DNA of 63,904 bases, the filler included, from Craspedostauros australis (taxonomy: Eukaryota): the NCBI GenBank assembly GCA_030167865.1. It is 11 parts of 11 records of this genome, joined end to end, with 100 filler letters (N's around TTAATTAATTAA, not from the genome) between each part and the next. Parts side by side here need not be neighbours in the genome. Positions count along the whole stretch, not along the records: positions 21,420 to 28,743 come from JALAGF010003455.1; 10 more parts are not named here. One strand, given 5' to 3'. A program made the position numbers and the translations under genes. This document shows positions 52 through 63,904 of the stretch, one piece after another. Below the pieces are notes generated by a model. That model saw only the letters and a list, made by a program, of their open reading frames with translations. It had not been told where the DNA came from and did no database searches. Each line of letters begins with the position of its first letter. Within the stretch, counting starts at the first letter, position 1.

Positions 52-3000
52 TCATGCTTCCTCATCTGATGATCCGTCATACATTGACAGCGGTTGCTTC
101 GTGCCGGGCGGTTGGATGTCGCTGACCATCTTCCACGGGCTATGCTCCATCAATGCCGCATCCTGCGTCGCTGCTCCCTTCCTCATGAGTGCGAAGGACA
201 TTTGGTGCATCACACCATCCACGTAGCACTTACCCAGCGACAGCGTTGAGAACACACCGTAATGACCAGTGATGATACCCTCGTCCACCACAGCTCCATC
301 AGCAAATGTCACCAGCGGAGCTTCGTAGATGCGAAAACCGAAGTACAGCATCTTTCCTTGGATAGTCGCCCCTCTGAATTGCAGCAGAGCGTTCATCATT
401 GGTGTGCCCCAAAGAATGGATTCGAAGGACCATTCCTCGAAGAAGAAGCCGTAGGACATGTACGCCGAGTACAGCGAAACGGACCATGGCTCTCCACGTT
501 GGACGCCTCCGATAAGCGAGATAACCTCGATCACACGAAGGAGAACGAGCCAGACGATGGCCTGGACGACAATGGACACAACGACGATGACGGGGGCCGC
601 GGCCAGTGGTGCTTCTGTTTTCATCATGATTGACATCAGCTCATATGACGGGATGAGGCTCGCCGCCACTATCACCACCATGATGGCATGCGCCAGCGTG
701 TTGTTGACGGTCATGAGTGCCAATCTCCACGTGGGGAGAGGCACGTTGCTTGGATGGTGGTCCTCGTTGATCATATCACTCGTGACGTGCGTACTCGGCA
801 ACACCAACGATCTGTCGATGGTCACGCCAGGGCCGCATGTCAGCGCCATGCCAACGCTGCTATCCGTGACCTTGGTTCTCTTGTACTGACCGCCCTCCTC
901 GACATCGAAGTCGCAAAAGGAGATGAAGGATCGTCGGACCGTGATCAGATCCAGCTTCGATGGAGGGAAGGTAGTCACTCCCGCCCTCGATCTCATGTCG
1001 ATATCCATGCCGTGTGCCATCAGGACGAGGTTCCACAGTTGCGAGTAGAATGTCAGGTCGAGGAGCAACATTGTTCCGACGAAGAAGTGGAAGTTGCATG
1101 CCCAGTCGGCGAACTTGGAGAACGTTCCTGTTCGTGCTGCACCCGGCCGTTTCTTGCCGATCAGCACCCACTTGAGGATGACGCTGGTGATCACGAAGAA
1201 GATGGACGTCAGGCCAAAGAGCGCGATCCTGTAGATGATAGGGGAGTATCTCCATTCCGGAAGCTTATTCCCGACCAACTGATCGGCAGCCACGAAGCAA
1301 CTGAAGGCGAAGTACAGCTCGATGGCGAGCCACATGACTTTCATCATTCCCAACACGGTCGATGAACCGGTGGATGTAGCGGATGTCATGTCCTCACTCG
1401 CTGTTTCGATTGCGGATTCTTCATCGCCATCTGGGAGGGCTGCCGAAGGAGCATCGACGAATGCTGGGTTGCCCTTGATTGTGGTGTTCGGGGGTGCCTG
1501 AGCGCCTTCCACCAGCACCGACACGCGCTGTACCTGGCAGCCGGAGCCGATGCTAGTTCCAGGGAGCAAGGCGCCATCGACTGTGGCGTCTGATCCAACC
1601 TGAATCTTGCGGAACTTCACGCTGGGACCTTGCTGCTCATTTCTCCATGGGCCGAACACACGGCATCGGATGTTCATGTTGATCGTGGCGTTTGCACCAA
1701 TCTTCACCAAATCGAACTCTCGGATGGTCCCGTTCACGCTGGCTGACCTGTGGATGTTGGCACCCATCAGGTAGTAGAACATCATCATCAAAGGCGTGCC
1801 GGCGATGATGCAGCCAACGAAGCGTTCCCATACATGCACCAACCGATCGACGAACCACCATCTGATGAAGTAAATATTGGTCTGATTGGCGTATCCTTCT
1901 GCGTATCTGCCAATGACGATCCACTTCGAGAGGACGATCGCGGAGGTGAACGCAATGGCCCAGACTGGAACGATCAAAGGGAACAGCACCCACTCAAGAC
2001 CGGGGAGGACGTTGGAGTCGGCGATGGCCTTTCCAACTTCATACGCTGGGATGATGGGGAGCGCGAAGATGACGAGCATGATGAACGCGCCGATGGCTTG
2101 GGTGATGGCGACGGCGGCTTGAGAGAGTGGCTTCTCGTTGGGGAAAGTCACAAGCCTCTTGAGGGTTGGGAGGTTGGTTGGTAGAGGCAGCCCCGTTGAT
2201 GCCTCAAGGAAGGCTCTTAGATCCACAACTTTTGGAAACAGTTGGAAGACGTTTGAAGGGAGGACTTTGTTGTATCGTTGAGAGAGGGACTGGCGGAGCT
2301 CCAACTCCATCATGGAGGACAGTCCAACATCCTTCCATTCATCGTCGGGGTGGACGCCTGATCTCGTGACGTTCTCGATGATCTCATGGAAGTCCATGTC
2401 GTTGATGTTCCAGTCTTCCATCGCGGACTTCCTCAACGATAGGTGCGAGGATTGAGCTGCCGTGCCAACATCGTGCGCGCTGAAAAAGTGCGATGTCCCG
2501 GCCACATCTAGCACTATCTTCTGCGTTCCATCATGAAGGCGCTGGCGGTTGTGGCGTCTCTGGATCTTGCCGCTTGTTGTTTTGGAGATGGTCCGTTCCT
2601 CCACAGCGACGACTGATGCCGGTGTCAACCCGATCTGGTCAACGACGGCCTTCTTGATCTGTTGGCAGATGCTTTCGACGTCATCTGTATCTGCTGAACG
2701 GATCTCAAACACGATCTCCAACTGCCCATCGTTGTCGGTGTCGTCGGATGAAAAAGCAGCGATGCAGCCTGGACGGACAGCAGATGATGCATCTTCCACA
2801 GCTTGTTCGATGTCTTGCGGGTAGTAGTTGACACCATTGACGATTATGATGTCCTTCTTGCGGCCGCAGATGTAGAGATAATCGTCTTGGTAGAATCCGT
2901 AGTCACCTGTTCGCAAGTATACCTTGCTATCGGCATCTGCATCGGATGGTGTGGTCTCCTGCAGTCTGCCTTGGAATGTTTCGGCAGTGAGCTGTGGCTG

Positions 3001-9518: not shown

Positions 9519-12500
9519 CCCCCTCCAGCAGCGGGGAACAACAGAACGGGTATCTTCAACGAAGATCGCAGCAACGGATTGGTAGAAGACGATCAATTCA
9601 ATCCAAATGAAGAGGTCGTCTATCCATATGACATCGCATTCGCGCCGATCATGGAATTCACCAGACATGGCATCAACTTCAGAAACGATGCGATTCCACG
9701 ACTAACGGCAACTGTGGAGATCATGCAACGACAACTCATCCACAACGCTGTAATGACGGCAGGCATGCGCTTGTACTCAGATGATGACGACGCAGGAGAG
9801 CGACACCTGTGGGTGTGCACGGCAGCAACCACGCTGTGCGACAACTTCTGGTCCATCAAAGAGATTCTCGCCAATGGACCGGTCATCAACCGATTGTTGG
9901 GGGAATACAACAACGATCCAATTCCCGACATGGCGTTGCACTACATCCTGGGAGGATGCATGCACGTGCTCCTGCGCGAGCGACCACGCGTCATGCCATA
10001 CGATCCGGTGACTGGACTTCATCAAGACAGCACAACCCCAGTTGTGCCCGCAGAACCGTACTACGACGGTGTGACCTACCACAGAATGGACGATGGGAAC
10101 GACGATCCCAACAACAATGACTACAAAGACGACATGGCAGCGGCTGCCATGGAACAGCTCCACGAACTGAGCACCAAATACAAGGACAAGGTCAACAAGG
10201 ACATCTGGCTTGCCAACAGCGGAGTTTCGTGTCACATCGTGAATTCAGATGCCGCCCTCTTCTTCGTGCGGCACATCAAGTCATTCGTTCAAGTGGGAGA
10301 CAGCACAACACTGGACTCTCCCAAGATTGGCTCCATCAAACTGCAGATCAAGTAACAAGACAACACAGGCCACACCATCTGGCTTGATGATGTGAAGTAC
10401 ACACCCAAGATGACAGTGAACCTTTTCTCTACAAACAAGGCCCTGTACAACAGTTACCAGATCGGTAACAACGGCATTCTGATGGACATCATCAACAGAG
10501 CTGGGAAGAGGATCATCTTTGATTGGATCTTTCCCACCTCCAACGGATTCATCACAGGAGTGCAGATGCATCCCATCATGCCAACTGAGGACGACAAGAC
10601 TTCCACAGCCATCATCAAGAGCCCATCCAAGGAGGTGAGCGCGGTGGAATTGCATCGAATGCTCGGCCACGCGCCACTCAAGACCATGAAGTGGACAGCC
10701 GCTCAATATGGATGGAAGATCATTGGCGAGATGCCGGTACGTTGCGACTGCGCGGTCGCGAACGCTAGAATGAAGAACATCTCGAAGGCGACGATCCCAA
10801 GAGCAACTCGCCGTGGCAAACGTCTCTTCATTGACATTAGTTACACTAAACACATAAGCTTTGGAGATAAACGTTACTGGACTCTGAATGTGGACAACTG
10901 CACAGACTACTGCTGGAGCTTCTTTCTGAAGAACAAAAGTGATCAATGAGGATACATCAGGCGATTCGTGCAAACAATCAAATTACTGACAGGTGACCAA
11001 CAAATCATCTTCCAAGGAGACAACAACGGAGAGAACAAATCCACGCAGGATATTCTCATCGATGCTGGACTGAACACGAAATTCGAGTTCACGGTATCCA
11101 ACACGCCACAGCAGAATGGTAGAGTAGAACGCAAGTTTGCGTATCTCTACACCAAGATTCGCTCCATGCTCAATAGAGCACAACTCAACGACGAGTACAG
11201 GCATGGCCTGTGGGCAGCAGCCGTGAGCACTGCCACTGTCATCGCCAACATCACCGTAGCGAAGAATCAGAAGGAGTCACCACATTGCCAGTTCTTCAAC
11301 AATGATCCACCATATGCAGATGCACTCCGCACATTTGGAGAGGTGGGTGTTGTGAAGACTACCTATGGTGGGACCACTGCAAACTCAAGAATAGAGGAGA
11401 AGAGATGGTGTTCATTGGATATGCACACCAACATGCATCAGGAGTGTACAACATGTACAGACCATCAACCAAGTCATTGGTCTGTTCTCGCGACATCAAG
11501 TGGCTCAACCAATCATACGGACAGTTCTGTGGCGGGGTGCCAGAACCAAACATATCCAACAAAGCAGGAACAACGGATGCAGACGGCTTCACAACCATTG
11601 GATGGAAGGGAACAATGCCAAGTACGGCAATGCGTCCAACATCAGAAGTGAAGAGAGTATCTTTCGCTGACACGAACAAGTATCACATCCTATCAGACAG
11701 TGATGATGAAGATGATGAGGACAATGGAGCAGCGACTCAACAAATCAACAACGACGAGGAAGATCGGAACAAATCCAATCATGAGGATGACCAGATCCAA
11801 CCATGCAGCAACGAAGCCGATGATAACAGAGGCATCACTCCTCCAAACACACCAGCGAGGTCTGCGCATGGCGCACCATTGAGACCTCCACCGACTAAAC
11901 CAAGCAAGCGTGACATAAACAGAAAGGAGAGAATCCGACATCATGAAGCACAAGGCAGGAAGGGAGATGTTTATCCCAAGCCAACTACAGGGAAGAGTAT
12001 TCCCAGAGCTCTGCGTGAGCTTGCAGACTTCAACGAACGAGGTCGAAAGGAAGAAGGTTACAAGAGCGAGTCATCATCCAATGAAGATAGTGACAAACTT
12101 AGTAACGAGGTAACTGACAAATCCAACAACGAAACTACAGACGATGAGGAAATCGCAGACGAAGAAGAAGAGATCGAGATCACTCACCATAGCACAACAG
12201 GACTATACAGAATGAATGCAATCATTACCGAGACACCAGCGATTGATATCAGATTTTCGATGCAGGACCAGAACGAAGAATCCGAGAAGCACATCAAGCC
12301 AACGACATTCGATGGAGCCTTCAATCACCCAGATCCCATCCATCGGAAGGGATATCGAGCAGCCATCAAAAAGGAGTTCAACTCAATGGATACACGCAAG
12401 GTGTATAGCAAGATCAAACAAGACGCCATCCCACACGGCCGCAGATGCTGCAAATGCAAATGGGTCTTCAAGTTGAAGCGCGACGGCACACATCGAGCGC

Positions 12501-13505
12501 GGCTCGTTGCATGTGGCTATTCGCAAGTCGCAGGAGTAGACTTCCAAGAGCATTACTCACCTGTCATCCATGAGATGACCTATCGAGTCATGATGGTGAT
12601 CATGCTGATCAAGAAGATGGACTGCGCACTCGTCGATGTCGTAACGGCATTCCTACACAGAGACCTCGACAAGGAGATCTACATGAACTGTCCCAATGGG
12701 ATGGATCATCAACCAGACGAAGCCCTGACCCTATACAAGCCAATCTATGGACTTGTGCAGAGCGCCAGGCAATGGTTCAAGATGTTGGTGTCGACCCTCA
12801 AGAATATCAACTTTGAGCAGAGCGCGGCAGATCCGTGCCTGTTCTACAGGAAGACGGACGAAGGACGTATGATCGTGGCCATCTACATGGACGACTGCTT
12901 CTGCTGTGGAGACTCCAAGGCATTGGAGACATTCCTGAAGGACATCCAAGGCAGCAAATTCAAGGGAACAATCGAGCACAGACTTGGAGATTACCTCAGT
13001 TGCAACATCGAAATGAACCACAACAAGACAAGAGCAACGTTGCGTCAACCACATCTCATCCGACATCTCATCGAAGAGTTCGGAACCAAGGTTGAGAAGA
13101 TGCAGCGCTATGGGACACCGGGAACCCCGGGTCAAATCATCGCATGACCATCCGACAATAACAGACTACAGAAGGTTGGACCGGAAGAACATGCCGAATA
13201 CCGCCGAGGCGTCGGTATGCTACTCTTCCTCATCAAGCACTCGCGACCAGATATCGCAAACCCTGTGAGGGAACTCTCCAAGGTATTGATCGGGCCCACC
13301 AAGGCCGCAATGAAGGAGATGTATCAGATCATCAAGTATGTGATCGATACAAAGGACTATGGATTGAAGATCCATCCAGCACGTCCAGACGACGACAGCT
13401 GGGACATGGAGCTCTTCTGCAATAGCGAATACGCAGGGGACAAGAACACGAGAATCAGCGTAGGAGGGTTCATCCTATACCTGTGCAAGGTACCAACCTG
13501 TTGGC
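9519..13505 (+). mobile_element. Degenerate Ty1/Copia LTR retrotransposon internal region (protease, GAG-pre-integrase, integrase, RT, RNase H start)
   Basis: Copia domain order: WLANSGVSCH, LHRMLGH...CDC, TPQQNGRVERKF, CKWVFKLKRDG...RARLVACGYSQVAGVDF, YGLVQSARQW, IYMDD, HSRPDIA, NSEYAGD. In-frame stops at 10353, 10947 and 13145, and a frameshift near 11370. Confidence 0.95.
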
Positions 13506-22963: not shown

Positions 22964-24976
22964 TCAATCCCCAAAAATGAATGAAGGAACTGCTTTGAAC
23001 CATCCTGGCAGTCTTGCATTCGTGCATTTCCATTTGCAGAGGCCGGCCGCACCGATTGTGCCGTACACCGCCACGATGACGAAGATTGCCGCCTCCAATT
23101 GCTGCGAAGTCAGCTTGCTCTTGAACAGGGTGGCATTGTCCGTACCATCCACGATCAGACCCAAGATTCCCAAACAGAACACAAGCCGGCTATTCACGAC
23201 AACACCAACCCATGTCGTTGATGGAAAGACCATCAAGCATCCGTGCGTCCAGCTTTCGACTGCCCTCACAGTGAAGCTATCAAGTGTGTGCCTGCCCCAC
23301 CGACTTGCCACCTCAAAGTGCCTTGCAACCGATGTCACGTCCCGAGCAAGGAGGGAGAGGCAGACGAAGTGTACACTCCACCATAATGACGCATTGGTGA
23401 CCCTCGTTAGTTGTGCCAGTTGGAAGATAGAGACGAACAACCACATGTTGCGAATGTGCGTATCTCCATCCAAGAAGTCCGAGACAGTGCTGAATCGTCC
23501 CACAGCGACGAACGCCCAGAAGCCAGTGATTGTAAGTGTGATCCCAATGACGAATGCGACCGACAAGGATGGCTCTGATTATTTGTACCAGAGACGAGCG
23601 CTGACAATGGTAATGGGAGTGTGACACACAATGCAATCCCTGGTGATCTGGAACGTTGGATGTCATTGACCCACCTTGTCCCATCTTCATTCGTTCGACT
23701 ATCCCTGTGTCCACGAGAGCCGCAATTGACTGGCGAATTAACAGGTGTATCGTTGATCATCGAGAGTTGGCTCCACTTGGTCGTTTCCTTTGTATCGACA
23801 TCCATGGACACGGCTGCATATCCCTCGAGCTTGAATTGATGCGATGCATGGAAAGTGCCTTCACCATACAAATCATTGATCAATTGCATATCCTTCATGT
23901 CCTTGAACATCATCTGTGGCATCGCTGCTGTGCACCATAATGCACCATCGATCGGCTGGAGCATCCGCGGGCGACTCGCGATCTAGCCTCTGCTTGGAAG
24001 CTCCGCAGTGCCCGCAGACAAATACAACCCCAATCGCTGGTTATCATCTCGCCCTTCCTGATTTGCCTGGAAACATACATCATTCGCAGCGATAGGGACA
24101 ATGTTGCCTGCGTCGCGATATTCGTCAAGGACACGATGTCGCTCTTCGTCGCCGAGGAACCCCATTGGGTGCATCTTCCCTATGAGTCCTTGCCGGGATC
24201 CTCATCAAGCCACATTTTTGCACCAGGCACGTACGTCGCCATTGTCCCGTCTGGCAGCGGCACGCGGTACGGATTTGTGCTACACCTGCTAGAGCGCTTC
24301 TCCTCCTTTGCCTTGGCGTGCCATTCCCTGACTGTGTCTAACAGGAAACTGGTGTGGTCAGTCTCCCCAACGTAGCGATCTCCCACGCCGCCGCCCATCG
24401 AGCTGGAAGAGGAATCTGACTAAGGATGTAGTGGATCGTAACCCGTGTCGGATGGTAGATGAGAGATGCCGGAGGACATCCGACGGAGAAGACAGCGAGA
24501 AAGTACATGAGAATGTGTGCCACAGCGCAGTGGATCTTGGTGTTGCATGATTCTGGCCATGCCTTCTTGGCGGAGAATGGATTGACTGCACAGCTGTTGC
24601 CATCGCTGTCGACATCACTGTCTCCGCCATCGTCATCGTCGTCGTCGCTATGATTGTTGTATCTTGTTTGATCCCTGCCAATGCCTTTTATCGCGATGGT
24701 GATAGTACTTGCCTTGCGACTGGAACAAGGCACGATGATGCACCAGAGCAGCAGAAAGCAAGTGGCCAGTACCGCCCAGCCGGTCCCGCATCATTCCATA
24801 TCGGCCTGTCCCGCGGACCATCCCAGAAAGGCGATGATGAAGCCATTGAAGGTGATGCTGCAGAACCAGCAGGAACAACGAATCAAGTTGCAAGGTGTGT
24901 ACTTGCAGAGGCCACGTTTGTTGCGTGCAACACTGCCAACATGACCGATGCTGTCACTGTTGCTGATTGGGCTCAT
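22964..24976 (-). pseudogene. Possible decayed multi-pass membrane protein gene with an intervening SET-domain-like fragment
   Basis: Hydrophobic segments in 24976-24338 lie in one frame broken by a TGA at 24791-24793, and more occur in 23566-22964. Between them, 24174-23640 reads RLGLYL...SQLSMINDTPVNSPVNC with an in-frame TAG. Confidence 0.3.
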
Positions 24977-25230
24977 CTCGTTGTGGGACGTCCCATGATC
25001 GGACTGCGTCTTCGTGTGGCTGGTAGTGGTAGTGGTAGTGGTAGCGGTACGGCTGTAGAATAGATTAGTAGTGTTGTATTGCACATTATTGCCTGGTACA
25101 CAGATGATGGTGCGAGTAAAAAGAACGGAAAGGTTTAGAATGATGCTGTTGCGATCGCGCTTGCATTGCTCTGCGTGCGAAGGTGGATGGTTTGCCGCTC
25201 TGCCGCTACAGCTATTGCTCCTGCTGCTCA

Positions 25231-25758
25231 TAATAGAGCCCAAACGTAATGGCTGTTGTCTTGTTGGCTGTTCTTTAGCTGTAGGCAGAGGCTTGACTGG
25301 CAAGCGGTCCAAACGTGAGTCTTCTGTTCCACAAGTAGTCAATTGAGAATACTGGTAGATGGTGAAGAAACGTGCGGATTATGAGATTAGTGCTATGGTT
25401 CTTCCCTTCGGGGAGGATCTCCTGTGGTGTCCTGGATGACAATGCATGTAAGTTGTGTAGCTCAAGTACCGTGGGTCGAGATCCGTTGTCTGAGTTCTGT
25501 GAGAGACAATGGGCGATGATGCGCGTTGCTGGGGCCTTGGTTCCGTGTGTCGGCGTTTTGGCGATGGTGGGTGTCAGAAACTTGGTTATCGGAACCCCAT
25601 TGGTTCCCTGACACGAATTCCGAAGATCCGCTTCAAGGTTCTGGATCTGTCTCCAAACGTGGGGGTCGGCGAAGTGTCCGTGCGACCTACTGGAATACTG
25701 ACAAGTCAGATGATTCGTAGTCTCTCTCACTAAGATGGTTACTAGTTTAGCTCTATTA
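25231..25758 (-). repeat. 3' LTR (528 bp) of the Copia element at 25231-28743
   Basis: Bounded by a perfect 9-bp inverted repeat, TAATAGAGC (25231-25239) and GCTCTATTA (25750-25758). Directly abuts a polypurine tract. Confidence 0.8.
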
Positions 25759-25770
25759 CTCCCCTTCATC
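25759..25770 (-). promoter_or_regulatory. Polypurine tract (plus-strand primer site) of the LTR retrotransposon
   Basis: Minus strand reads GATGAAGGGGAG immediately before the LTR start TAATAGAGC, about 90 nt after the ORF stop. Confidence 0.8.
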
Positions 25771-25856
25771 TCACGTTGAAACGTGAGTTGACTGAAAGCA
25801 AGAAAGCTAATCGTAGTGTGGTTTGTTCCGCCGCCCAAGATGGCGGCGAGCGGGCT

Positions 25857-28742
25857 TCATTCGTGCTGCTCGTTGTTGTCGTTGTAGCCGCGGCCTTGGT
25901 GGCGGTTGGTGAGCATGAGTTCCAATGCCTCATTCAGCGAAGAAGTGATGCTGACCTGCTGGACCTGGTTGATGTGGTCAAGCCCTCCGCGAAAAAGGAT
26001 ATCGGCGAGGGTTTGGATGACCAGAGGTGTTCTTTCGTCGTTTTGGAGGACGGCCTCGATCTGAGCTGTGGGGTCGAGGGACATCTGAAAGATGGGTGGT
26101 TGCATCATCGTTGGTCCTCGGTTGCTGGACATGATGTATCCGGACCGAAGGCGTCGGGGTGACGGGTATGCGATCGCTGGTTGGGGCTCCGTTCGAGCTC
26201 TCTTGTTAGCGTTGCTGGTCTCCGGAGTGTCGGGGGTCGATGGTAGGGGATGGTTCAAGACGCGGAATTGGCGGGTGTTGATGTTCGCATACTCATTGCG
26301 GTTCACGGGTGCCGGGTACGCGGTTGCTACCGGTACGTCATCATCGGTTGGTTCCTCCGGTAGTGTGGGGACCTTTGGCTGTTCATCCTGGGTTATGAGG
26401 GGCGCTGGTTCTACCGCCTCGGTAGGTTTTTCTGCGGCCGGAGTGGGAGCTCTTTTCGTGTTGATGGTCCCACCTGTGGATTTCTTGGCGGATCTGACTT
26501 GTTTGATCATCTTGATTCCCGACATTCCCGAAGAAATGGTTGAGTCCTCAGATTCATCGAAGAGCCCCTTTCTCTTGGGGCGGTTGCTTTGCTTGCTGCT
26601 GGCTCCAGAGCTGGGTCGTCGCGATGCCTGGTTCCGGTTGATTGAGTTGTCTTCTGGTCGGAAGATGGACCCAGAATCGTCACTGTCACCGGGCTCTGGG
26701 GCGGACGCGCTGTCCACGGAATGGTCGGCTGGGATCACGGGCTTTGGTCGTACCTTGTCGGTATACCCTTGTCCATCTCGCGTGACTGTCAAGATTTTGG
26801 ACGCCGGTGATGGTCGTGAGGATCGCCTGACGGGGGGTCTGGGGTGGCTGATTACCGCTCCACTTGCGATCTCTGCTTCCACGTCAATCACGCTTCCTGG
26901 GTCCTGCGAATCTTGATCTTCATCGTGATACGCCTCTGGCTCAGACTCCTGGTGGCTGGCTTCTTCTGCGGTCATCTTCTTGTCGAAGTATCCATCAGGG
27001 ATCTCATCCAAGAACCTGCTCTCTGGTGTCTCTCCCTCTTCGAGACTGGGTCTGGCGTCTTCGAGGGATGGTATTCCGTCGACCATCTCATCCTCGTCGG
27101 TGGGGGGAATGGGTTCATCCGCGAGTGCATTCTTCTCTCGTGTGAGGTTGGCGGCGAGGGTGTCACTTAGTTTTCGGACTGCTCGTGCCTTCCTTGCGCG
27201 TGCGAGGATGATAGGGATCCGGTTCTTCCTCACCTTGAAGAAGTGAAATATGGACGGTTTCCGCATGGTTGCGCGGAACTCGTTGGGTGGTTCGCCCCAT
27301 GCGCCGTCTTCAGGGGAGTAGAAGCACTGTCCATCGGCTATGGCGATGCTGAGGACCCCGTTGGTTTGGAGGCTGTTGTCCATATATTCGGAGAGGGTGA
27401 GAGGGTAGATGGATTGTTTTTCTATGAAGGTAACAAGGCCGGTTGGTGCCTTATTGTTTCCCTTCGTGCAGTAGATTCGGACTCTGCGGCCACTGTACCC
27501 AACGACGATTCCTTGGAAGGTTCCCTTCTTCCCTGCAGGATATAGCACCCTGGTTCCGGGGACGGGACAATGGGTGCCATGGTAGAATGGGTTGTACTTT
27601 GGGAATGTCATCTTGCGTGTCCTCGTCTGGAATGGGGAGAGGTTGTGTCCGGGGTCCTGGTTGTGGCGGCTCCGTTTTTGTGGTGATGGCATGTTCATGT
27701 CGCGTAATGCAAAAGAAGGTGCGGTCGCGTTCCGTGCCAGGTCTTCTTGGAGATCAGCAATCAGCATGTCGCACCTGTATGTTTTGTGCTCAGGTGTGAC
27801 GAAAGCCCGAGGTGTCAGGCCCGTGTGGAAGGAAGTTTCACAGTTACCTTCTCTGATGGCTGGCATGGTGGCTCCAGGCGGCGGTTTCCGGAACTTGGTT
27901 GATGTGGCGACGTGTGATTGGTTGGTTGGCATGATGGGCCCTGTCTCCAGCATGTCTCTTGGGTAGTAGAGGACGTCGCTTCCACATGAGGGGTTGATAC
28001 TCGAGAATGTGCTGAATTCGTCGGTGAGGGCTGATGGTGGTGTGTCGCCACGCCGGATCAAGAATTTGTCGGTTGGCGCGCCAGCTGGCTCGTGGTTCTG
28101 ATTCGTAGTACGGTTGTCGGTCATGTCGTATACGACACTGGAATTTCGCGTCTGTTGGCGGTTGGGCGAGGCCGGTGTGCTTTTGGTGCGCTTGATGGTT
28201 CTGGGTGATTTCCTTTGTGCCATTTCGAGGGGATTCGGTTCTCGTTGGGTTCTGGTTAGCCGAAGGGTTTTCGATGTCGGGCTGTACTTCATGGAGGTCT
28301 GTTGGTACCTTGCCATGTTCACGCTCATAGTGTGTTCTTCCTTCGGTGGTGGTGGTTCTTGCGTCTCCGTGGCCATTAGATCGGGATCATCGTCTGCTCT
28401 GGTCGTCCTGCTCTGTGTTATAGCCTGTGATATGGCTTCGCTGTGGTATCCGGACTCATGGATTGAGTTCCGGAATATCGTTCTTGACGTGATGTGGTGG
28501 AATGGTGTTTTGGAAAGAGGTTTGGTTAGTATGTCTGCGATGTTGTCAACTGACGCAATGTGGGCAAACACGATGATTCCAGCGGCGATGCATTCCCGGA
28601 TTTGGTGGAAAGCCAATGAGCAGTGTTTCTTCTTCAGTGTCGAGGATGGGACCGTAGTGTTGAGTACCACCGCTTTGTTGTCTCCGAGCATGATTGCGGG
28701 TCCGTCGATGGGGACTCCGAGGTCTCTCAGCATGTAGCGCAG
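25857..28742 (-). CDS. Copia Pol C-terminus (RNase H) with about 870 aa of in-frame extension of unknown function; 5'-truncated
   Basis: Uninterrupted ORF of 958+ codons. Only the first ~90 aa are recognisable as RNase H. Confidence 0.75.
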   Translation of the reverse strand: MRYMLRDLGVPIDGPAIMLGDNKAVVLNTTVPSSTLKKKHCSLAFHQIRECIAAGIIVFAHIASVDNIADILTKPLSKTPFHHITSRTIFRNSIHESGYHSEAISQAITQSRTTRADDDPDLMATETQEPPPPKEEHTMSVNMARYQQTSMKYSPTSKTLRLTRTQREPNPLEMAQRKSPRTIKRTKSTPASPNRQQTRNSSVVYDMTDNRTTNQNHEPAGAPTDKFLIRRGDTPPSALTDEFSTFSSINPSCGSDVLYYPRDMLETGPIMPTNQSHVATSTKFRKPPPGATMPAIREGNCETSFHTGLTPRAFVTPEHKTYRCDMLIADLQEDLARNATAPSFALRDMNMPSPQKRSRHNQDPGHNLSPFQTRTRKMTFPKYNPFYHGTHCPVPGTRVLYPAGKKGTFQGIVVGYSGRRVRIYCTKGNNKAPTGLVTFIEKQSIYPLTLSEYMDNSLQTNGVLSIAIADGQCFYSPEDGAWGEPPNEFRATMRKPSIFHFFKVRKNRIPIILARARKARAVRKLSDTLAANLTREKNALADEPIPPTDEDEMVDGIPSLEDARPSLEEGETPESRFLDEIPDGYFDKKMTAEEASHQESEPEAYHDEDQDSQDPGSVIDVEAEIASGAVISHPRPPVRRSSRPSPASKILTVTRDGQGYTDKVRPKPVIPADHSVDSASAPEPGDSDDSGSIFRPEDNSINRNQASRRPSSGASSKQSNRPKRKGLFDESEDSTISSGMSGIKMIKQVRSAKKSTGGTINTKRAPTPAAEKPTEAVEPAPLITQDEQPKVPTLPEEPTDDDVPVATAYPAPVNRNEYANINTRQFRVLNHPLPSTPDTPETSNANKRARTEPQPAIAYPSPRRLRSGYIMSSNRGPTMMQPPIFQMSLDPTAQIEAVLQNDERTPLVIQTLADILFRGGLDHINQVQQVSITSSLNEALELMLTNRHQGRGYNDNNEQHE

Positions 28743-33757: not shown

Positions 33758-36020
33758 TGTTGCGGTTGAGGTTGTAGATGTGTTGTCCTCTGTTGTGTTC
33801 CTGTGTGCCGCCCAACTGTCGAGCCAAGACAGATGACGTTGTTTGGTCCTGTGCGGAACAGTGAGTGATTCTGCTGCCGTTGGTGCTGCCGCCTTGTGAC
33901 GCCAAAGTTGAAGGAAGCTGGAACCAACTTCTCGTGTTGCGGCGTCCTTGTTTGTTGGAGCTTTGCAACACATGCTCGTGGTGCCACAGAGGACGCGCAT
34001 TTTGTTGGGCTTCACTTTGCACGTACTTTGGAGGCAAACTGCTTTGGGCAGACACTCCCACGAAAGGAAGGGACGCATTTTATTGCTACGCACGCGTTCT
34101 GTGTGTGTGGGATCGTGCTCGTGCTTCGCACAAATCGTGTCATGTCTTTGGCTTTCTCCACTGTACGACGAAGTACGTGTGCATACTCCTACCTCGCACA
34201 ATTGTATCGTGTTTCCGCATTTCCAACCGAACACGACACAGCCCCGTCAGTGTCATCGCGGTGTCCCTCCATGACTGTGTCACGTTTTGGCGCGTCAAGC
34301 CCCCTTGCTCTCATACAGTCACGCCATCAACGCTGCCATCGTTCTCCACACGCTCTATCGCCAGCAAGGGCACCGTACTCTTTGGTGCTTTTATACTCCC
34401 ACTGATAGCAGCACAGCCATAAGTAATTCAAAAGTACTGCAAAGTACCTTTCTCTGCGCTGGACGAACTATACGTACTATTTTTGATGAGCAAGAGTTAC
34501 GACAAGTGCCTCGTTTTGCTTCCGACTCAAGAATTGGAAACTTGATGTCGGAAGCAGAACCGAATCTTGCAGCCAACCAAATCGCGATCAGGGTGCCTGC
34601 CGACCATCCAATCAGCGATCAGTAATCAACAAAACCAATTCCGTGTCTGTGATGTTGGCTTCGTCTGTACGTCATCCGGTCCAACGTCAACCACTCCCAC
34701 AACCAACAGCCCAAAACAGGATTGCCTTCAATACGGTTCTCCTTCGCTTCGTTGTGGGACCAACACGACGCGACAGGCAGACAGGTCATTCGTTGGTGTT
34801 TCAGAACACGATAGAACGTGTTCCGTAGCAGGCCCAAAACCAACTGCCATCTGCTTGTGACGTCGAATGCGACATGTCTTCAAGTCAGAACTTTGGCGGG
34901 TGAGTGCCAGACGGTGGACATAGTATTGTCAATCACGGACAAATGGAGACACGGATAGATGAACGTTTGCCGAACGTTAGAAGATGACCGAAAGGCGGCG
35001 TCTGGCGATACTCCATGACCAACCCATTTGATGGCACATTAATGTGTATTATGTTTTTAATATATTAATATTAATTGCATGTGTGTCACACATGCCGTGG
35101 CGGTCTTGGAAAATGTGCGCGCAACCCCTTCACTCGCAGAAAAGTGATGCCTGGCGAGACGGCGAGTGAAACTTGGTGATTGCGCGCAGCGCCGCACAAA
35201 CCTCAATGAGCACGCTCCGCGCATTGTGCTTCTCAGTGCTTGTTGATGTTTGTCGGTGGCCACGGTGTTCAACAATACCACAGACAACAACCAAAAGGCG
35301 GAAAGCAGAGAGGAAGGAGACAAGAGGAAGAAGACGATCGGCGCGTGAGAACATTCCAGAGAGTGGAGCACATCGCATCACATCACATCACATCGTGGAT
35401 TGTGCATGTGGAAGCATCAGACTGCATAACACCGAACAGCGCATCAGTTGCACCATCTTGGGAACACCGCAAAGAAGGCGCAAAGCAACACTTGCAACGC
35501 GGAGCCCCACCTTTGTCCATTGTCGAAGTCCTCCTTGCCTTGTGCATCAGCATCAGCATCGACACAGGTGTTGTTCTCAGTTGCTCTGGGAAAGGCTCAC
35601 ACGAATCAGAAGAGGACAACAGCAACTGCACAGCGCCAGGCAACAACACCGTCCTCATTCGTGTTTGACTGCCATCTTCAAGTCTACGAACAGAAAGCGG
35701 AGGACGGGAGGAATTGAATCAAGCGGGAGATCAGCGGTTGGCAGACGCGATTCCAAGAGCGCGGCTACGGACTTGCGACGAGGAAACCTCTCTATTTGCC
35801 GCAATACGTCCATTTACAATTGCTGTACGTGTCGAGAAGGAGTTCAAACGAGAGAAAGGGATCAGACAAGGTTGAGGCAGGCAGTACCTACAGCATTGCA
35901 CCGCATCGCACCGCATCGCATTGGATCACTTCGCACACACACACAGGATCTCGACAGCGCATCTTCACCGACATCACCACCGACATCCACATTCACATTG
36001 GTCTTGACGTTGAGTGGATA

Positions 36021-39000
36021 ATGCAAAGCAAGATCACGCCACTGAACTCATCAAAATCCATGACAGCACCCATGACGATGACCATGCCCCTGCCAATTGC
36101 TGAGGACAAGGTCGCCATGCATGGCAGCAGAGGATTCTCGCGCTTGTTATTATCAGCTGTGGACGATCATTCATGCTCCTCGTCGACCTTCCCATCACCA
36201 ACCAATTCCATCATTACAGGGTTCTCAACCGCGACGGTAGCCACCACGACCACAGTTGCTTCCAAGACCATTCGGAAGGCACCGTCAACGTGGTCAGAAA
36301 CTCAATCAACGTGTACTGCGACAACTTCTGTCGTGCATGCGCCAACAGCGCCGACAGCAACAGCAACGGTCCCTTCATCATCAACGCAACAGCACGTCAG
36401 AATTGCAGCAGTGCCATCATCAACCGACGAAACCTACCTAATGTCCAAAGCCGCATCAACAACAACCATGAATGCGCGTACAATGACATCGACAGCATCG
36501 AGAACACATCAAATGCGTCATTCACAACCACATCAGCAGCACCAACATATGCAGCAGCAACATATGCAGCACCAACATTCGCGGCTACAGCATCCGCAAC
36601 AACGACAGTCACGGCATTCCAATCATTCCACCCATCCAGTTCATGCGAGTTCACATGATTATTCACATTCGTCTCACGCACCAGGTCGACCATCGCATTC
36701 CGGGCAAACAGCAAACACGGGAAGAGTCCCACCACCGGCTCCGCAATCGCGCAGCGGAAGATCCAGACGAAGCAGACACGCACACTACAGGCACCATCGC
36801 CAGCATGCAAAAACGTCTGTCGTTAGCGTACCCTTGGAGAAGAAGATCGTCTACGCATCGCCTAGAATCGACAATGATGATGACAACCTCTTCCCGTCCA
36901 AACAGAACAACGAGGATCTGCATCCATCATCGAATGCCCGTTGGAACAGCATCTCGCAGCAAGCTGGCGATCACAAGCAGGACGGTTCGGAGCTCAACAT
37001 CACCAGGGGCATGGCCCCGCTCGCACTCAAGGCGGGTGTCACGCCCGCAGTCGCCTCGCGTGTGCGCCGTCTCACCCTCAACCTCGATCCGGCTGAAGAT
37101 ATCCTGCCCGAGTGGATGGACGTCATCTCGGCCATGTTCTTCGACCTCGAACACATCACCATCGTCTCTGGCGTCACGTCGTCGGAACAGGAAACTGTAA
37201 GCGCCCGCATGAGACGTCTCTACCTCCTCTATCGTTTCCCCCACCTCATCAGCATCGATGGCACCAAAGTCACGCAGGACGAACGCCGATTGGCGAGGCC
37301 CAACGATCCCAACGGGGAGCGCGTGGAACGTCAAGAGTGGGTCACCAGCGACTCCCTCCTCGACGTCTGCAGCAATGACGATGATGAAGATCCTGCGGAT
37401 CACGCGGACCATGCCAATCATCGCAGTCAAGAACGTGATGATGACCACGAACGCAAAAACGAAAGGGAACACGATCGTGCGCAAGGCCAATACCATTCAA
37501 CCACCAAACACCGCCGTATCATTGGCAACGGCTCCAACGTGGACCGTGCGTACGAGGATGATGCGAACCACGCTGGCGATGACTATGAAACCATACGTTT
37601 TAGCCAGGACATGTCCAGCCCCACCGGAGCGTCCTTCGATCACCACCAGTGCTGCAACGTGTTCGGCGACGCTTCTCTACCCGACCTGAATTCTTATGGT
37701 AGCACAACATCTCTCCATCACTCATCATCTTCCAATGACAGCAACAACAACAACAGCAACAGAAATAACAACAAGCACGAGCAGATCATTGCAAGCACCA
37801 ACTCGAGCCGCTCCCTATCTCCGATGAGACCCAACAACAACAACAACACTACCAACAGTAGCAGCAACAGCAGCAGCAACAGCAGCAAAGGTGGCAACGA
37901 CCGTCGAAATCGCGATCGCAATCAAAACCGTGGCTCATCCATGTCAAGGCCAAGAGGACCCTCAGGAGCATCGCTGTCCCATAGACGCCACAGCATAAGC
38001 GAACGAGGATTCATGGAGAAGAAGATCCACGGCGACGCTCTTGAGGTGGACTTGTCAGGATCAGTGAAGACCGTTCGGCTGGAAACGCCTCGAGTCGTCG
38101 TGCCGCTCATAGATCTACTCGAGGATGGATCCGAATCTACAGCTGGAGCATCCGCAACGGACAGCGAACGGGCGGCCGCCCGCAGACGCACCAGTAGAAG
38201 AAGCGACAATCTCACCCAAGACGGGCATGCTTCGATGCGATCGTCCTCCCTGGATTCGCCCAGGTCCATCCGGCAGTCAGACACGCTGGAGATCGTGTCT
38301 GTGTCCAGCGACTGTCACGAATACAGCAGCCCGCTCTGCGGCATTTCGTTCGGTCGCTTTGGTTGCGCCAACCGCCTCACCTGCGGAACCCGCATCAAGA
38401 AAGGGACCGGAAAGAGCAGACGTGATAATAGCAGCCAAGGAAAGAAGAAAGGCGCACCATCCTCAGCCAGCAGACGCGGCAGCACAGGCAATGCCAATAG
38501 CAGTAGCAATGGAAGTAGAAATAACGGGAAGAATCGCAACCAGCGACAGCAGCGAAAGATGAAACCATCGTCTCCGATCTATCAGCCGAACCCAGCCAGA
38601 CGAACCACTCTGTTCGCCCAGCACCGACTGAACCAGCAGCAGAACCTCCTCAGCGCAGCCGTCACGGCCGGAAGGCAGCAGCTCATGAATTGGACGCCTC
38701 CACGTTCCCGCGACGGATCTGCAATCTCCAACAACAAGAAGTTGTCTCCATCCAAATCGTTGACGTCTCCATTCCCGATGCAATTCAGGGACCGTGTCTC
38801 CGCAGTCGCCAACGGCGCTGCTGCTCCCCCCAACAAGAGACTCTCGAAGGATCTAAGACTTACCAGCAGCAGCAGCGGTGGTGCAAGCGGCAGCGGTAGT
38901 GGTAAAGGCAGAAGCAACAGCAGTAGCAACAAAGGCAGCAGCAGCAGAGTCGGAACCCACTTGATGAAACCGGCGCCGTTCACACGTGCTGTGTCATTCC

Positions 39001-39479
39001 GAGGAACGACCAGAGCACCAGGGCGGGAGAACACGGCGCCTATAGTGGTGCCAGCATCAGCAACATCGCCGGCGATGGAGACCATCTCCACACCGATCCA
39101 GCTCGATCGCATCGTGTCATCTCCGCCGAGGATCGCCGTCAGTCCACGTTCGAATTCCAAGCGAGGTGATCTCCCGCCGCCATGTCCGAGCAACAACCAA
39201 CGTCGCAAGTCGCTGGCCGCCGCCGCGATGACCGCAATGAGTCCGTTGCGATCCAAGAAGGCCAAGCGGATGTTCCGCCAACGCAAGAATGCCCGTGCTA
39301 CGTCTGTCATGAACTTTGACGAGGACGAGGACTGTGACGACGAGGACAGTTGTGACAGCCGTGACGACGACTTGGTCGACACGGACTCGGAAGAAGACCT
39401 GATTGTGGAGGAAGGATTTTCAAGCAGACATGATTCCTTCCACATCGTCGGAGCCATGAGCGAGGAGGCGAGCGCATGA
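36021..39479 (+). CDS. Large low-complexity protein with an LRRcap-like motif
   Basis: Long ORF, probable ATG at 36021 (MQSKIT). RRLYLLYRFPHLISIDGTKVTQDERR resembles the U2A'/ANP32 LRR cap. The rest is S/T/Q/N/R-rich. Confidence 0.75.
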   Translation: MQSKITPLNSSKSMTAPMTMTMPLPIAEDKVAMHGSRGFSRLLLSAVDDHSCSSSTFPSPTNSIITGFSTATVATTTTVASKTIRKAPSTWSETQSTCTATTSVVHAPTAPTATATVPSSSTQQHVRIAAVPSSTDETYLMSKAASTTTMNARTMTSTASRTHQMRHSQPHQQHQHMQQQHMQHQHSRLQHPQQRQSRHSNHSTHPVHASSHDYSHSSHAPGRPSHSGQTANTGRVPPPAPQSRSGRSRRSRHAHYRHHRQHAKTSVVSVPLEKKIVYASPRIDNDDDNLFPSKQNNEDLHPSSNARWNSISQQAGDHKQDGSELNITRGMAPLALKAGVTPAVASRVRRLTLNLDPAEDILPEWMDVISAMFFDLEHITIVSGVTSSEQETVSARMRRLYLLYRFPHLISIDGTKVTQDERRLARPNDPNGERVERQEWVTSDSLLDVCSNDDDEDPADHADHANHRSQERDDDHERKNEREHDRAQGQYHSTTKHRRIIGNGSNVDRAYEDDANHAGDDYETIRFSQDMSSPTGASFDHHQCCNVFGDASLPDLNSYGSTTSLHHSSSSNDSNNNNSNRNNNKHEQIIASTNSSRSLSPMRPNNNNNTTNSSSNSSSNSSKGGNDRRNRDRNQNRGSSMSRPRGPSGASLSHRRHSISERGFMEKKIHGDALEVDLSGSVKTVRLETPRVVVPLIDLLEDGSESTAGASATDSERAAARRRTSRRSDNLTQDGHASMRSSSLDSPRSIRQSDTLEIVSVSSDCHEYSSPLCGISFGRFGCANRLTCGTRIKKGTGKSRRDNSSQGKKKGAPSSASRRGSTGNANSSSNGSRNNGKNRNQRQQRKMKPSSPIYQPNPARRTTLFAQHRLNQQQNLLSAAVTAGRQQLMNWTPPRSRDGSAISNNKKLSPSKSLTSPFPMQFRDRVSAVANGAAAPPNKRLSKDLRLTSSSSGGASGSGSGKGRSNSSSNKGSSSRVGTHLMKPAPFTRAVSFRGTTRAPGRENTAPIVVPASATSPAMETISTPIQLDRIVSSPPRIAVSPRSNSKRGDLPPPCPSNNQRRKSLAAAAMTAMSPLRSKKAKRMFRQRKNARATSVMNFDEDEDCDDEDSCDSRDDDLVDTDSEEDLIVEEGFSSRHDSFHIVGAMSEEASA

Positions 39480-55254: not shown

Positions 55255-57216
55255 TCGTCTCAGATCCGTGGTGGAGAGGAGACTGACACGGCGCGGCAGG
55301 GACTGCAGCAGTTGCGATCCTGTGTTCATGGCACCTGGCGCAGCCGCCGACAACGCGTTGGCCAATTCCAGCGTGGCAACTTCTTCACTGGCCAACCGCT
55401 GGTGCGCGGCGACGATGGCGGCCTGCTGGCGGATGTACTGCTCACGTTGCTGAGCCTGCTGCATCTGTCGTTGCGTGGCGATCATGAGCTGCGTCGTCTC
55501 CTGTGCGTCATGGAGCTGCTTGGCGACGAGCTTTTGCAGCTCATCCTTGTCGCGGATCTGTTGGCTTGTTTTCTGTGGGTTGGTAGAGGGTACAGGATAT
55601 GTGATTGATCGGAAGAGATGCAATGGAAGGAGAAGAGGTGTGAGATTTGATCAAGCGTGATAGAACAATAGCAATGATAGGCATTAGCCCCAACTGAGAC
55701 GGGAACGTACCTCAAAGGCGATGTGATCGCCGACCTCATACCACAGGGCATCTTCCTTCTGCTTGAGGAATCGACCACCCTGCGATCGGATGATGCGCAC
55801 GACCTTGCGAGACACCATCGGCTTGTCCTTCTTCTTGGCCTTGAAGTAGACCGTGCGGAACTGGTCGATGAGGCGTCTGTACTTCTGGTTGCCGGGGTGC
55901 TTCGTCATGGCGCCGCCGCGTCCGCACAAGATGTCATCGCTTGTGTAGTGGGCGATGCCGTCCGTGGACGCCGGAACGGGCTTGATGTCCTCGGCGTCGC
56001 TGAATGTGGTGACATCGTTGGCCTGTGCCAGTGCTTGCTGTTGCATCTGTGCCTGCATGGTGACGTTGGTGTTGTTGGTGGCGCTCAGGACCATCGGCAT
56101 GGAGATTGGCGCAGTGATCGTTGCTGCTGCTGCTTGCGGAGCGGCTTGCATCTGCGGGTGGGATGCCAGCGCCTTCTGGAGTTGGCTTGCGCTGTTGATC
56201 ATGGCGTAGCTGCTCATGCTGACGCTTCGACTCCTGTGGTTGCTAACCGATGCCGTGGCGCTGTGGTTGCTGCCACCGCCCAAACTCGCATCGCTGTTGC
56301 TTCTGATGTTGCTTCTGATCTTGCTTCTGATCTTGCTGGCGTTGGTGATGGCCGTGGCCTCCTGGATCTCACGCAGCATACTGTGCGTGATATCGTGATG
56401 CGAGGGCGCCTGGCCGTTCCTTGGGTACTTGCCGTTGACCTGCCCGCCGTGCGCCATCTCCATCTTGGCCTTGAATCGCTTGCACTCGTCGATCTCATCG
56501 CGAAAGACGGTGCGCATCTGCTGCGAGGTCTTATCGAGCGCGGCCGCATCCGAGATCTCATGCCACAGACCTGACTGCGCATTCTGCTTGAGGAAGCGGC
56601 CGCCGGTGGACTGGATGAGACGCACGATGCCACGCGAGATCTCCGGCTTCTCGTTCTTGCGTGCGCGCAGGTAGGCCGATCGGTACTTGGCCACGAGCTC
56701 GCGGAAGTGTCGGTTGCCGCTGTGGAAGGGGATCTTGCCGCCTCTGCCGCACAGGACGTCGTTGTCTGTGGGGTCGGCGACGCCCTCGTCGGTCTTCTGC
56801 TTCGTCTTGGTTGCATGTGCGTCTGCTGCGGATGAAGATGAAGACAGAGTTGACGAGGATGAAGACAAGGTCGATGAGGAGGAGGATGATGATGGTGTGG
56901 GAGATGCTGCGGTCTTGCGGGCTCTCTTGGATGGTCCTTGCGATGTCTTCTTGGTCTTGCGCTTCTTGACAGTCTTCTTCTTGTTGTCTGTTGATGTGGC
57001 TGTGGATGTGGCACTCTTGAGACTGCTGGATGACAAGCCAAGGAGGCCCTCGAGTGCCTGAGACTGCTGCTTCTCTTCATTGTCTTCGGCTGCACTCTTC
57101 ATCTGCTTCATCTGCTTGACCTGCTTCTGTTTGCTCTGTTTCGATTGTTTGTTGCATGATGACATGATGGTGGATGGCGAAGCAACGTTCATCTTTGAGA
57201 GGTTCGATGTGTTCAT
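55255..57216 (-). CDS. Protein with two DUF6824 domains, 3'-truncated; exons 57216-55711 and 55572-<55255
   Basis: DVLCGRGG...HSGNRHFR...GGRFLK...KTSQQMR, and DILCGRGG...HPGNQKYR...GGRFLK...AFE|KTSQQIR across GT-AG intron 55710-55573. Confidence 0.9.
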
Positions 57217-58258
57217 ACTGATTGTGTTATAACACTTTGCAATGTTAGAGTACTTGTCTTGTGATGAGTGTGACTTGGGTTTGCTCTCAATTTGGTTTTA
57301 TGAGGATGTTTGTTGGATGGATGTGAAGAATGAAAATGAAAGACAACAAAGTGAGCGCGTGCACACATGGTACAAATGCTACGCCAGCCACGCACACATC
57401 CACGGTTCATGTCCATGTTGGCTTCTCAGCACAGAGAGGTCTCTCGTCGATACAAGTGTTACAACATCGCAACATCCGATCATCATCTTCATCCACGCGA
57501 AGCAGCACAATTACAATTACTTCACCACACACAACGCAAGACAACACAAGAGTCCATGTTGGTGGCGGCTTTTCTGCAACCGTTGTGCATCTACTCGTGA
57601 CAACAACACAAAGCGCACAAACAACACGCACAAACAACACGGAATCGTGGAACGCAAGATGAATGACCGAAATAGCACTCCAGAAACTTCACGACAAGCA
57701 CGGCACATGATTCACAAAGCCAAAATTCCGCCGTCGGTTGAAGAACTTTCAAACGTCACGAAGATTGCTAGAACTCCAAAGCGTATCATTTGTGAACGCA
57801 GGGGTTAGATTCAAACGCCCTCTTGTACGTCATCCTTAACCCTACCACCAAACCGTGCACTTTCACGATCCAACATAACATTTCGCGACACTCGACAATC
57901 AGCGATGATAAGTGTCCATGAACCACTCATTATCGATCGGAAGAGCCATTTATCTTCTGCTGCACCACGTACTATTCGCTGTTCGTCCAGATGGTCCGAC
58001 TTGAGAAGCGTTCGGCCTTGGCGAGTGTCGCCAGGCTTCCTTCTTGGGTGCGTTTTGGGGCTTGGATGATCGCCTCTTCGATGGTTGCCATAAATGTCGA
58101 TTCTTCTCCGTGAGCCAGCAATAATGCTTGCGGACTTGTGTGGAGGCAATTCCACCGCNNNNNNNNNNNNNNNNNNNNNNNNNNNNNNNNNNNNNNNNNN
58201 NNTTAATTAATTAANNNNNNNNNNNNNNNNNNNNNNNNNNNNNNNNNNNNNNNNNNNN

Positions 58259-63000: not shown

Positions 63001-63904
63001 ACCTTGGGCGCAATGGATGGTGCTGCAGAAGGACTCGCTGTGGATGTTAGCGCGTCTCTCCCGTCGCACCTGCAATCAAGCGGGCGCGAAGAGGTCGTTG
63101 ACATGCCTACAACACAGATCCTGCCCGAAGCCAGAGTTGAAGGCGACTCTCGTGGCGGGCCAGGCTCCAGGCCGATGGTCAGATCGAGATCCAAACAAGA
63201 AGGTGGAACAGGCGATATGCTTCCCCCCGATTCGAAGGAGCAAGAATCGATGGTCGCGGGACCAGTGGACGGTGCGTCCGAGGCCTACGACGAAAAGGGG
63301 GCGGGCTCTGAAACGTCTGCTGAGGATCCTGTGACAGAAACCGATCAGGAGCCATCCATCGAGATCATTGGTCACGGTCGTGGCAGCAGAGAGGAGGAAG
63401 AAGCCTCCTTGCACAACCTCGAGTCGATGAATTCGGCCACGGAGGCTCACGACGAATCGAGTGCGATGGATGTCGAGGATAACCACACGGAGGGACACAC
63501 CGACGCAGACGTTGATGTCGAGGCAGACATCGATGAAGATGGTGAAGCAAACGGCGGTGCGGAGGCCAACGCGGACGTTGTGGAAGATGTCGAGGCGGAT
63601 GTCAAGGCTGACGCAACTGTCGTGGCAGACGCTGCAGTTGAACTTGAGGCTCAGCAAGTTCATGACAGCAATGAAGCCATGGAGGGACAAGACGCAGATG
63701 TGGGTGGAACAGGTGCGACTGTTGCTGTCGCCATCGACGTGGACGACGATGCAAGCAATGGCGATGATGTGGAAATTGCCGATGCCAATAATGAGATTGC
63801 AACTGAAGACGCCGCTGAAGATGTGGACGTTGATGTTGATGCAGGCAATGGCGATGGCGATGATATGGAAGTTGCTGATGCCGCGGAAAGCATGGAAGTT
63901 GACG
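60100..63904 (+). CDS. Very large Asp/Glu-rich protein, partial at both ends; missing from the ORF track
   Basis: The frame starting at 60100 (QRATNNRKRL...KIPPELFEKYSGIIVHHALL...CWAHIWDILEYYG) shows no stop through 63904. About 260 aa of helical-looking sequence precede about 1,000 aa dominated by D/E/A. Confidence 0.85.

Follow-up and report, generated by a model that had tools for sequence, protein, structure and literature searches.

The window analyzed here is a stretch of 63,904 bases from Craspedostauros australis (assembly GCA_030167865.1), made up of 11 contigs of 1.7-18 kb with joints of the form N44-TTAATTAATTAA-N44. Its fifth contig (contig 5; 21420-28743) carries, on the minus strand, a fragment of a Copia retrotransposon whose Pol frame continues far beyond its ribonuclease H (RNase H). 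This in-frame extension of Pol, referred to below as the tail, is the subject of this report.

The contig 5 locus

A continuous open reading frame (ORF) of 961 amino acids (aa), named P0001, runs from the contig end at 28742 down to a TGA at 25859-25857 (Table 1). Contig 5 breaks inside RNase H, and the visible portion of Pol amounts to about 91 aa, without Gag, protease, integrase or reverse transcriptase (RT). Judged by this RNase H C-terminal block with its ADILTKPL motif, the fragment belongs to Ty1/Copia. The block is 49-65% identical to 13 Copia polyproteins, all of which carry PF07727, and it keeps all 35 invariant columns of the RNase H alignment used here (A1), as it must by definition, being row 1 of the 11 in that alignment. 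The lineage formed by the fragment and its relatives is called CoDi-like throughout.

In the contig 5 copy the tail follows RT-RNase H directly, as a C-terminal extension in the same frame. The sequence-only reading had described a frame that stays open for about 870 aa past RNase H, and this is borne out at 28469-25860, where no stop occurs over the 862 codons tested. The other five frames hold 13-37 stops, and among 2000 composition-preserving shuffles of the tail the stop count averaged 28 and did not fall below 14; a chance ORF arising from a T-poor strand is therefore ruled out.

Table 1. Features of the Copia fragment on contig 5 (window positions; residues numbered along P0001)
Feature	Position	Strand	Remarks
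Last 91 aa of Copia RNase H (..GDN..VPSS.LKKKH..NIADILTKPL..IFR)	28470..28742	-	cut at the contig end, 28743
Orphan 870-aa in-frame Pol extension (residues 92-961)	25860..28469	-	0 stops; no homologue and no Pfam family; third-position match to its own RNase H
Beta-rich core, aa 383-452 (G396-TRVLYPAG-KKG-TFQG-IVV..RVRIYC..GLVTFI)	27387..27596	-	SH3-type (KOW/Tudor-like) barrel a lead only
Strongly basic segment, aa 500-535, predicted helical	27138..27245	-	40-aa window 496-535 carries a net charge of +10
Acidic segment, aa 536-615, probably disordered	26898..27137	-	successive 40-aa windows carry net charges of -12 and -11
Less polar C-terminal module, aa 880-947, probably helical	25902..26105	-	from composition; no family match; ends just before the stop
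TGA stop closing the Pol-extension frame	25857..25859	-	
Polypurine tract GAGATGAAGGGGAG	25759..25772	-	RRAGGGGAG motif, also downstream of Pol in relatives
Start of 3' long terminal repeat (TAATAGAG.. at 25758) and probable long terminal repeat/3' region	24870..25758	-	sense-strand skew to about 24870

Position of the tail within the element

The end of the element was located by comparison with related loci, which were collected by scanning metagenome contigs with alignment A1; 233 relatives were confirmed by tblastn and 79 loci were kept. Downstream of the tail stop by 98 nucleotides (nt) lies a junction between a polypurine tract (PPT) and the start of a 3' long terminal repeat (LTR), reading GAGATGAAGGGGAG and then TAATAGAG. 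In the whole window the motif RRAGGGGAGTAR is present a single time (25756-25767, minus strand), against 0.01 occurrences expected. Of the 79 related loci, 20 contain the same pattern, with 21 matches in total, every one on the Pol strand. A slightly different PPT pattern is met in 20 loci (16 distinct), 68-1369 nt past the Pol stop. In one of the relatives, L068, a direct repeat defines the LTR, and the 3' LTR starts immediately after GGGGAG. When the 4.4 kb downstream of the tail stop was compared with the related loci, the sole nucleotide similarity was confined to nt 92-125 after the stop, which is the PPT/LTR junction itself. A PPT abutting the 3' LTR, with RRAGGGGAG followed directly by TA, is common to the lineage.

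Because this lineage-typical junction comes after the tail, the tail lies inside the element. The claim of the sequence-only reading that the frame stops just before the PPT and that the extension is internal is thus upheld, both by the distance of the junction from the stop and by its recurrence in relatives. The skew of the sense strand (A>T, C>G) persists to about 24870. Within the probable LTR/3' region a (TGGTAG)4.8 microsatellite was noted at 25021-25049, which is ACC/ACT-rich on the sense strand of the element.

Pol termini in related elements

Two sets of relatives were employed to establish where Pol ends in this lineage. For the first set, the RNase H part was searched among proteins longer than 1682 aa, yielding the 13 Copia polyproteins mentioned above, of 1722-2553 aa, whose extra length comes from long Gag regions and from the spacer between integrase and RT. 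In all 13, Pol ends 17-140 aa past TKPL and 2-125 aa past the xFR motif. The second set consists of the 79 loci, among which the TKPL block was recognized by a motif pattern in 72; three of these run off the contig and 69 are closed. In every closed locus the tail past TKPL measures 9-67 aa, with a median of 28, against 885 aa in contig 5. The earlier statement that Copia Pol normally ends soon after this motif therefore holds in both sets.

One locus, L018, was considered as a counterpart of the tail (2433-2801; frame open up to the contig end, over 138 aa). To the eye this stretch reads as a protease-like segment of another element (..GANVSIVGKGW..ISEYQVRE.., resembling Copia protease), and the locus was set aside; its structure suggests a recombinant or permuted element. 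Three further loci (L001, L005 and L021) have identical 111-nt repeats at both contig ends and are probably circular-looking assemblies collapsed on an LTR or k-mer overlap. In proteins P0002-P0014, the stretch from integrase to RT includes a conserved block of the form W..V..I..HR...V.W.....W....L..DP...YA (near column 1400-1480 of P0002), which looks chromodomain-like by eye, in line with what is reported for CoDi-A elements (PMC2774666); a Pfam search of the 13 related polyproteins detected no Chromo family at E 0.01.

Composition and layout of the tail

The tail is enriched in P, S, T, E, R, D, N and Q, and is less polar at about aa 380-530 and 880-947. A polar linker of about 290 aa precedes the beta-rich core (70-130 aa), and short basic clusters such as RPKRK and KRAR are present. 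A Kyte-Doolittle scan of P0001 in 19-aa windows found no transmembrane-like or signal-like segment in the tail, where no window exceeds 1.46; the five most hydrophobic windows of P0001 all fall in its RNase H part. Composition, the less polar segment at about aa 380-530 and the hydropathy scan agree with the initial description of a P/S/T/E/R-rich sequence with a folded-looking core and no transmembrane helix.

Third-position composition ties the tail to the element. At third codon positions, A has a frequency of 0.26 in the tail; the RNase H part of the same frame has 0.27 and a second Copia element on contig 3 of the window 0.28, and the range is 0.10 to 0.18 across eight ORFs assumed to be of the host (EF-1alpha, an AMP-binding enzyme, an AAA/TPR protein, a cyclase, a phosphodiesterase, a DUF6824 protein and two ORFs with no Pfam match). 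The remaining third-position frequencies of the tail closely follow those of the RNase H part. Since the tail shares the compositional signature of the element, both a recent capture and a chimeric join are argued against.

The chimeric join would be a mis-assembly in which unrelated coding DNA became attached to a fragment of RNase H. Such an error could be suspected from the fragmented state of the assembly, with 11 contigs of 1.7-18 kb, and from contig 5 ending inside a repeat-prone element. However, the sequences on either side of the tail, RNase H upstream and the PPT/LTR start downstream, are of one Copia lineage and lie on one strand, and neither frame nor composition is broken across the RNase H-tail junction. 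We consider a mis-assembly highly improbable.

Searches for homologues of the tail

Several collections were searched for sequences resembling the tail. With phmmer, no homologue was found among 1.84 billion representative proteins, and a search of 5.8 billion clusters at near length gave no match to the tail among the 8000 candidates scored. Scans of metagenome, viral and prokaryote-genome contigs likewise returned no homologue, and tblastn of the tail against the 79 related loci reached a best E of 4.3. Pfam searches of the whole tail and of five pieces, at E 10, matched no family, including chromo, Tudor or Agenet. The sub-threshold Pfam rows QTMAN_N and DUF6175 were taken as chance, as was the best sequence match in the PDB, a stretch of an IP3 receptor at E 0.35. 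Internal repeats were sought by self-blastp, which returned the self match only, and by TRF, which found only short arrays of 1.9-2.0 copies. Comparison of contig 5 with the other ten contigs of the window showed no nucleotide or protein similarity and no second LTR or family copy.

The orphan status of the tail raises the possibility that it is captured host coding sequence, functionless cargo that is still open because little time has passed since the capture or because the copy is young. Its lack of relationship to the 79 loci and to the 13 polyproteins (hhalign probability 0.05% against the polyprotein alignment, by which an origin through duplication of part of Gag or Pol was also rejected) would fit such an event, and captures of this kind have been described in one or few copies in the consulted part of one study (PMC7264820). 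Against this, the third-position composition fits the RNase H of the element and not the ORFs taken as host, no host homologue was seen among the 1.84 billion representatives or on the other ten contigs, and a random capture would not be expected to produce an exact in-frame junction with Pol together with an end just before the PPT. A captured cargo is accordingly judged to be rather improbable.

An accessory ORF in related elements

The interval between pol and the PPT is variable in the CoDi-like lineage (68-1369 nt) and holds an accessory gene in some families. Between the Pol stop and the PPT, a small ORF was found in 11 of the 69 related loci, corresponding to seven distinct sequences (L031/33, L039/42, L044/45/57, L053, L054, L063 and L068). 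This ORF, named ORF3, spans 108-274 aa from stop to stop in the loci and terminates a few tens of nt upstream of the PPT. The profile was built from five of the ORFs and recovered the two further distinct members with E-values of 6e-13 and 1e-9. Nine more ORF3 proteins (P0015-P0023), of 75-213 aa, are present in the protein collection.

Pfam KOW (PF00467) matches six of the seven ORF3 members, with a best E of 7.4e-6, and one of them passes the curated cut-off (24.1 versus 22.3 bits). AlphaFold modeling of P0021 from a 12-row alignment gave a five-stranded barrel with a predicted local distance difference test score (pLDDT) above 90, followed by a disordered linker and two C-terminal helices. 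In Foldseek, the best match of the barrel is a KOW domain of SPT5, 8p4e_Z, with an E of 9e-4 and a root-mean-square deviation of 0.9 Å over 49 columns; many DSIF/NusG entries follow it, and only the top match passes E 0.001.

ORF3 is normally separate from Pol. It lies in the Pol frame in one of the seven distinct cases (L039/42), which is the chance expectation, and there it begins directly past a single TAA, so that one substitution would fuse it to Pol. This situation bears on a second explanation of the tail, namely that it is a normally separate third ORF which became fused in the contig 5 copy or subfamily by loss of the Pol stop where the two frames happened to coincide. The separate ORF3 of relatives in the pol-PPT interval, the end of their Pol 9-67 aa past TKPL, and an in-frame Met at aa 124, the first one past that zone and a possible former start, are all consistent with it. 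On the other side, an ORF of about 840 aa would be three to eight times the size of any ORF3 seen, the tail has no significant similarity to these ORF3s, and a former stop leaves no trace that could be demonstrated from one sequence. Because relatives carry a separate small ORF in this interval, an accessory slot is favored as the setting of the tail and a fused ORF3 is a serious option, if an unlikely one.

The earlier proposal had been either a novel accessory function or a fused separate ORF. The ORF3 of the relatives supports the accessory-slot part of that proposal and leaves the fusion on the table, and the particular roles put forward with it, that is, integration targeting, anti-silencing or particle scaffolding, gained no direct support.

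A candidate adaptor function

It is very probable that the tail represents a real accessory coding region lying inside the element. The overall best explanation combines such a genuine sense coding tail in a CoDi-like Copia element with an adaptor reading, and we regard this combination as evenly poised. The tail fills the interval from RNase H to the PPT, which would be the accessory slot of the lineage. Its layout, from linker through beta-rich core, basic helix and acidic stretch to basic clusters and terminal helices, hints at a largely disordered adaptor, a possible though doubtful assignment when taken by itself. Such an adaptor would connect nucleic acid or a nuclear factor of the host with the reverse-transcription or pre-integration complex, or with the element RNA, and would be analogous to the KOW-barrel ORF3 of the relatives and to the chromodomain tails of integrases.

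Several observations weigh against this explanation. The tail is known from one copy only, which is itself cut off within RNase H, and no relative has a tail approaching 870 aa. Fusion to Pol is atypical, since ORF3 is separate in the relatives apart from the one distinct case described above. With the seven-member barrel profile, hmmsearch found nothing in the tail even at E 1000; hhalign of the tail against the KOW ORF3 gave a non-significant probability of 0.06%; and the best Smith-Waterman pair between the tail and the KOW ORF3 set has a shuffle p of 0.16. A language-model annotation of the core by Atlas returned mostly the names of small Tudor/Agenet/SH3-type domains (KIF2A N-terminal domain, DUF3104, Tudor-knot, Tudor_3/Agenet, SH3_1 and Tudor_5), at scores of 0.78-0.84 that are below the reliability level and are reached by a third of shuffled proteins, which makes them a lead only. 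Single-sequence AlphaFold modeling of aa 365-535 predicted several strands and a long basic helix at a pLDDT of 43, too low for the model to be of use; the predicted helix occupies residues 147-170 of the modeled fragment and reaches a pLDDT of about 73 in its best block.

Other comparisons between the core and the KOW barrel are more suggestive. The two hhalign alignments, neither of them significant, cover aa 396-400 and 415-426 and run co-linear with the barrel. Among 70-aa windows of the tail ranked by summed similarity to nine barrels, the beta-rich core comes first, and only 6 of 1000 shuffles reach its summed score (p 0.006). This value is a weak hint, because the nine barrels are mutually related and the window was picked after inspection. 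Homology of the tail core to the KOW barrel is thus suggestive at most. The tail matches neither the KOW motif nor the family profile; in position it corresponds to ORF3, being in sense orientation, lying between Pol and the PPT, and ending just before the PPT.

A more specific version of the adaptor reading can be formulated, which is speculative and has little probability. In this version, the slot mostly encodes a free Spt5-like KOW protein, and the contig 5 family would have enlarged it into an 870-aa adaptor fused to Pol. A degenerate KOW/Tudor-like barrel, together with the basic clusters, would then dock the RT-RNase H/cDNA complex or the transcript on the host elongation or chromatin machinery.

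Other contigs of the window

The Copia element on contig 3 (9519-13505, plus strand) contains an SH3-like domain of integrase and RVT_2 domains in an ORF at 11306-13144, preceded by several shorter ORFs. The element is of a different lineage, its RT being 22-24% identical to the CoDi-like relatives, and has no nucleotide similarity to contig 5. The contrast drawn by the sequence-only reading between the intact frame of contig 5 and the decayed Copia of contig 3 consequently carries little weight.

Long frames with no Pfam match are found at 60100-63903 (plus strand, 1268 aa), 35718-39476 (plus, 1253 aa) and 58261-59997 (minus, 579 aa). Their sense strands are A-rich, G makes up 54% of first codon positions in the frame at 60100-63903, and these frames may be repetitive or related to transposable elements. 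A host-type protein with two DUF6824 stretches is encoded at 55687-57297 (minus strand), and one contig (5572-9419, plus strand) holds a guanylate-cyclase ORF followed by a phosphodiesterase ORF, both host-type. Genes of this sort point to a diatom or stramenopile-like host.

Comparison with known systems and significance

Additional sense-oriented ORFs located between pol and the 3' LTR are known in LTR elements of plants and insects, as described in the consulted part of a survey (PMC7264820). The tail shares with these additional ORFs (aORF-3S), which include the env-like ORFs of SIRE1-type Copia and Athila-type Gypsy elements, the post-pol slot before the PPT and 3' LTR and the same orientation as gag-pol. 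Like the tail, aORF-3S ORFs often lack a recognizable domain, according to the portions consulted of two studies (PMC7264820; PMC9289625). Unlike them, the tail is fused in frame to RNase H and has no match among deposited proteins, and unlike the env-like ORFs of SIRE1 and Athila it contains no transmembrane or signal-like segment. The systems also differ in host, which for contig 5 is probably a diatom-like alga and not a plant. Domain gains are documented for Gypsy elements; gain of a domain or gene is reported to be rare in Copia-type elements, and none was reported among 4,811 plant Copia consensus sequences that were screened, as far as the text seen of that study goes (PMC9289625).

Within the lineage, the closest comparison is the KOW ORF3. 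Its overall plan, a small beta module followed by a polar linker and C-terminal helices, has a parallel in the tail, and the pattern G-x2-V-x-[VY]-x2-G..G-x-[IV] of the KOW ORF3 can be read by eye in the tail core. The likeness between the terminal helical module of the tail and the C-terminal helices of ORF3 is an analogy by position only. The two differ in scale and arrangement, ORF3 being a separate protein of 108-274 aa and the tail an 870-aa fusion. As for the Spt5/NusG KOW domains, the superposition holds for the ORF3 barrel of the relatives and not for the tail, and neither shows an NGN domain or any other feature of Spt5.

In diatoms, Copia elements are reported to be activated by stress, in an algal group of ecological importance, and the searched text of the same paper makes no mention of a C-terminal extension (PMC2806351). 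Among the publications found, which were judged mostly by titles and the beginnings of abstracts, there was no description of a Copia element with a KOW ORF or an RNase H extension. For the diatom CoDi-A elements, the part seen of another report describes a chromodomain on integrase that is thought to guide integration (PMC2774666). The chromodomains of CoDi-A and of Ty3/Gypsy chromoviruses resemble the proposed adaptor in being small reader or adaptor modules appended to a Pol enzyme. They differ in that the chromodomain sits on integrase and the tail on RNase H, and no chromo or Tudor family was matched in the tail. By Copia gene order the tail comes after RNase H, and it would therefore not travel with integrase unless left uncleaved.

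Taken together, these comparisons place the tail as a post-pol sense accessory region, a known kind of sequence, which is unusual in its size, its orphan status and its fusion to RNase H. They also outline a recurrent post-pol accessory slot in a Copia lineage of probable diatom-like algae, occupied by one huge RNase H-fused orphan and by several Spt5-type KOW proteins. If the tail is conserved among copies, it would be a tractable case of retroelements inventing accessory proteins and a candidate for a new mechanism of targeting or expression. Should the Pol-fused KOW/Tudor-like adaptor prove true, it would give Copia elements a new route to targeting or to control of expression, one that does not depend on the chromodomains carried by integrase.

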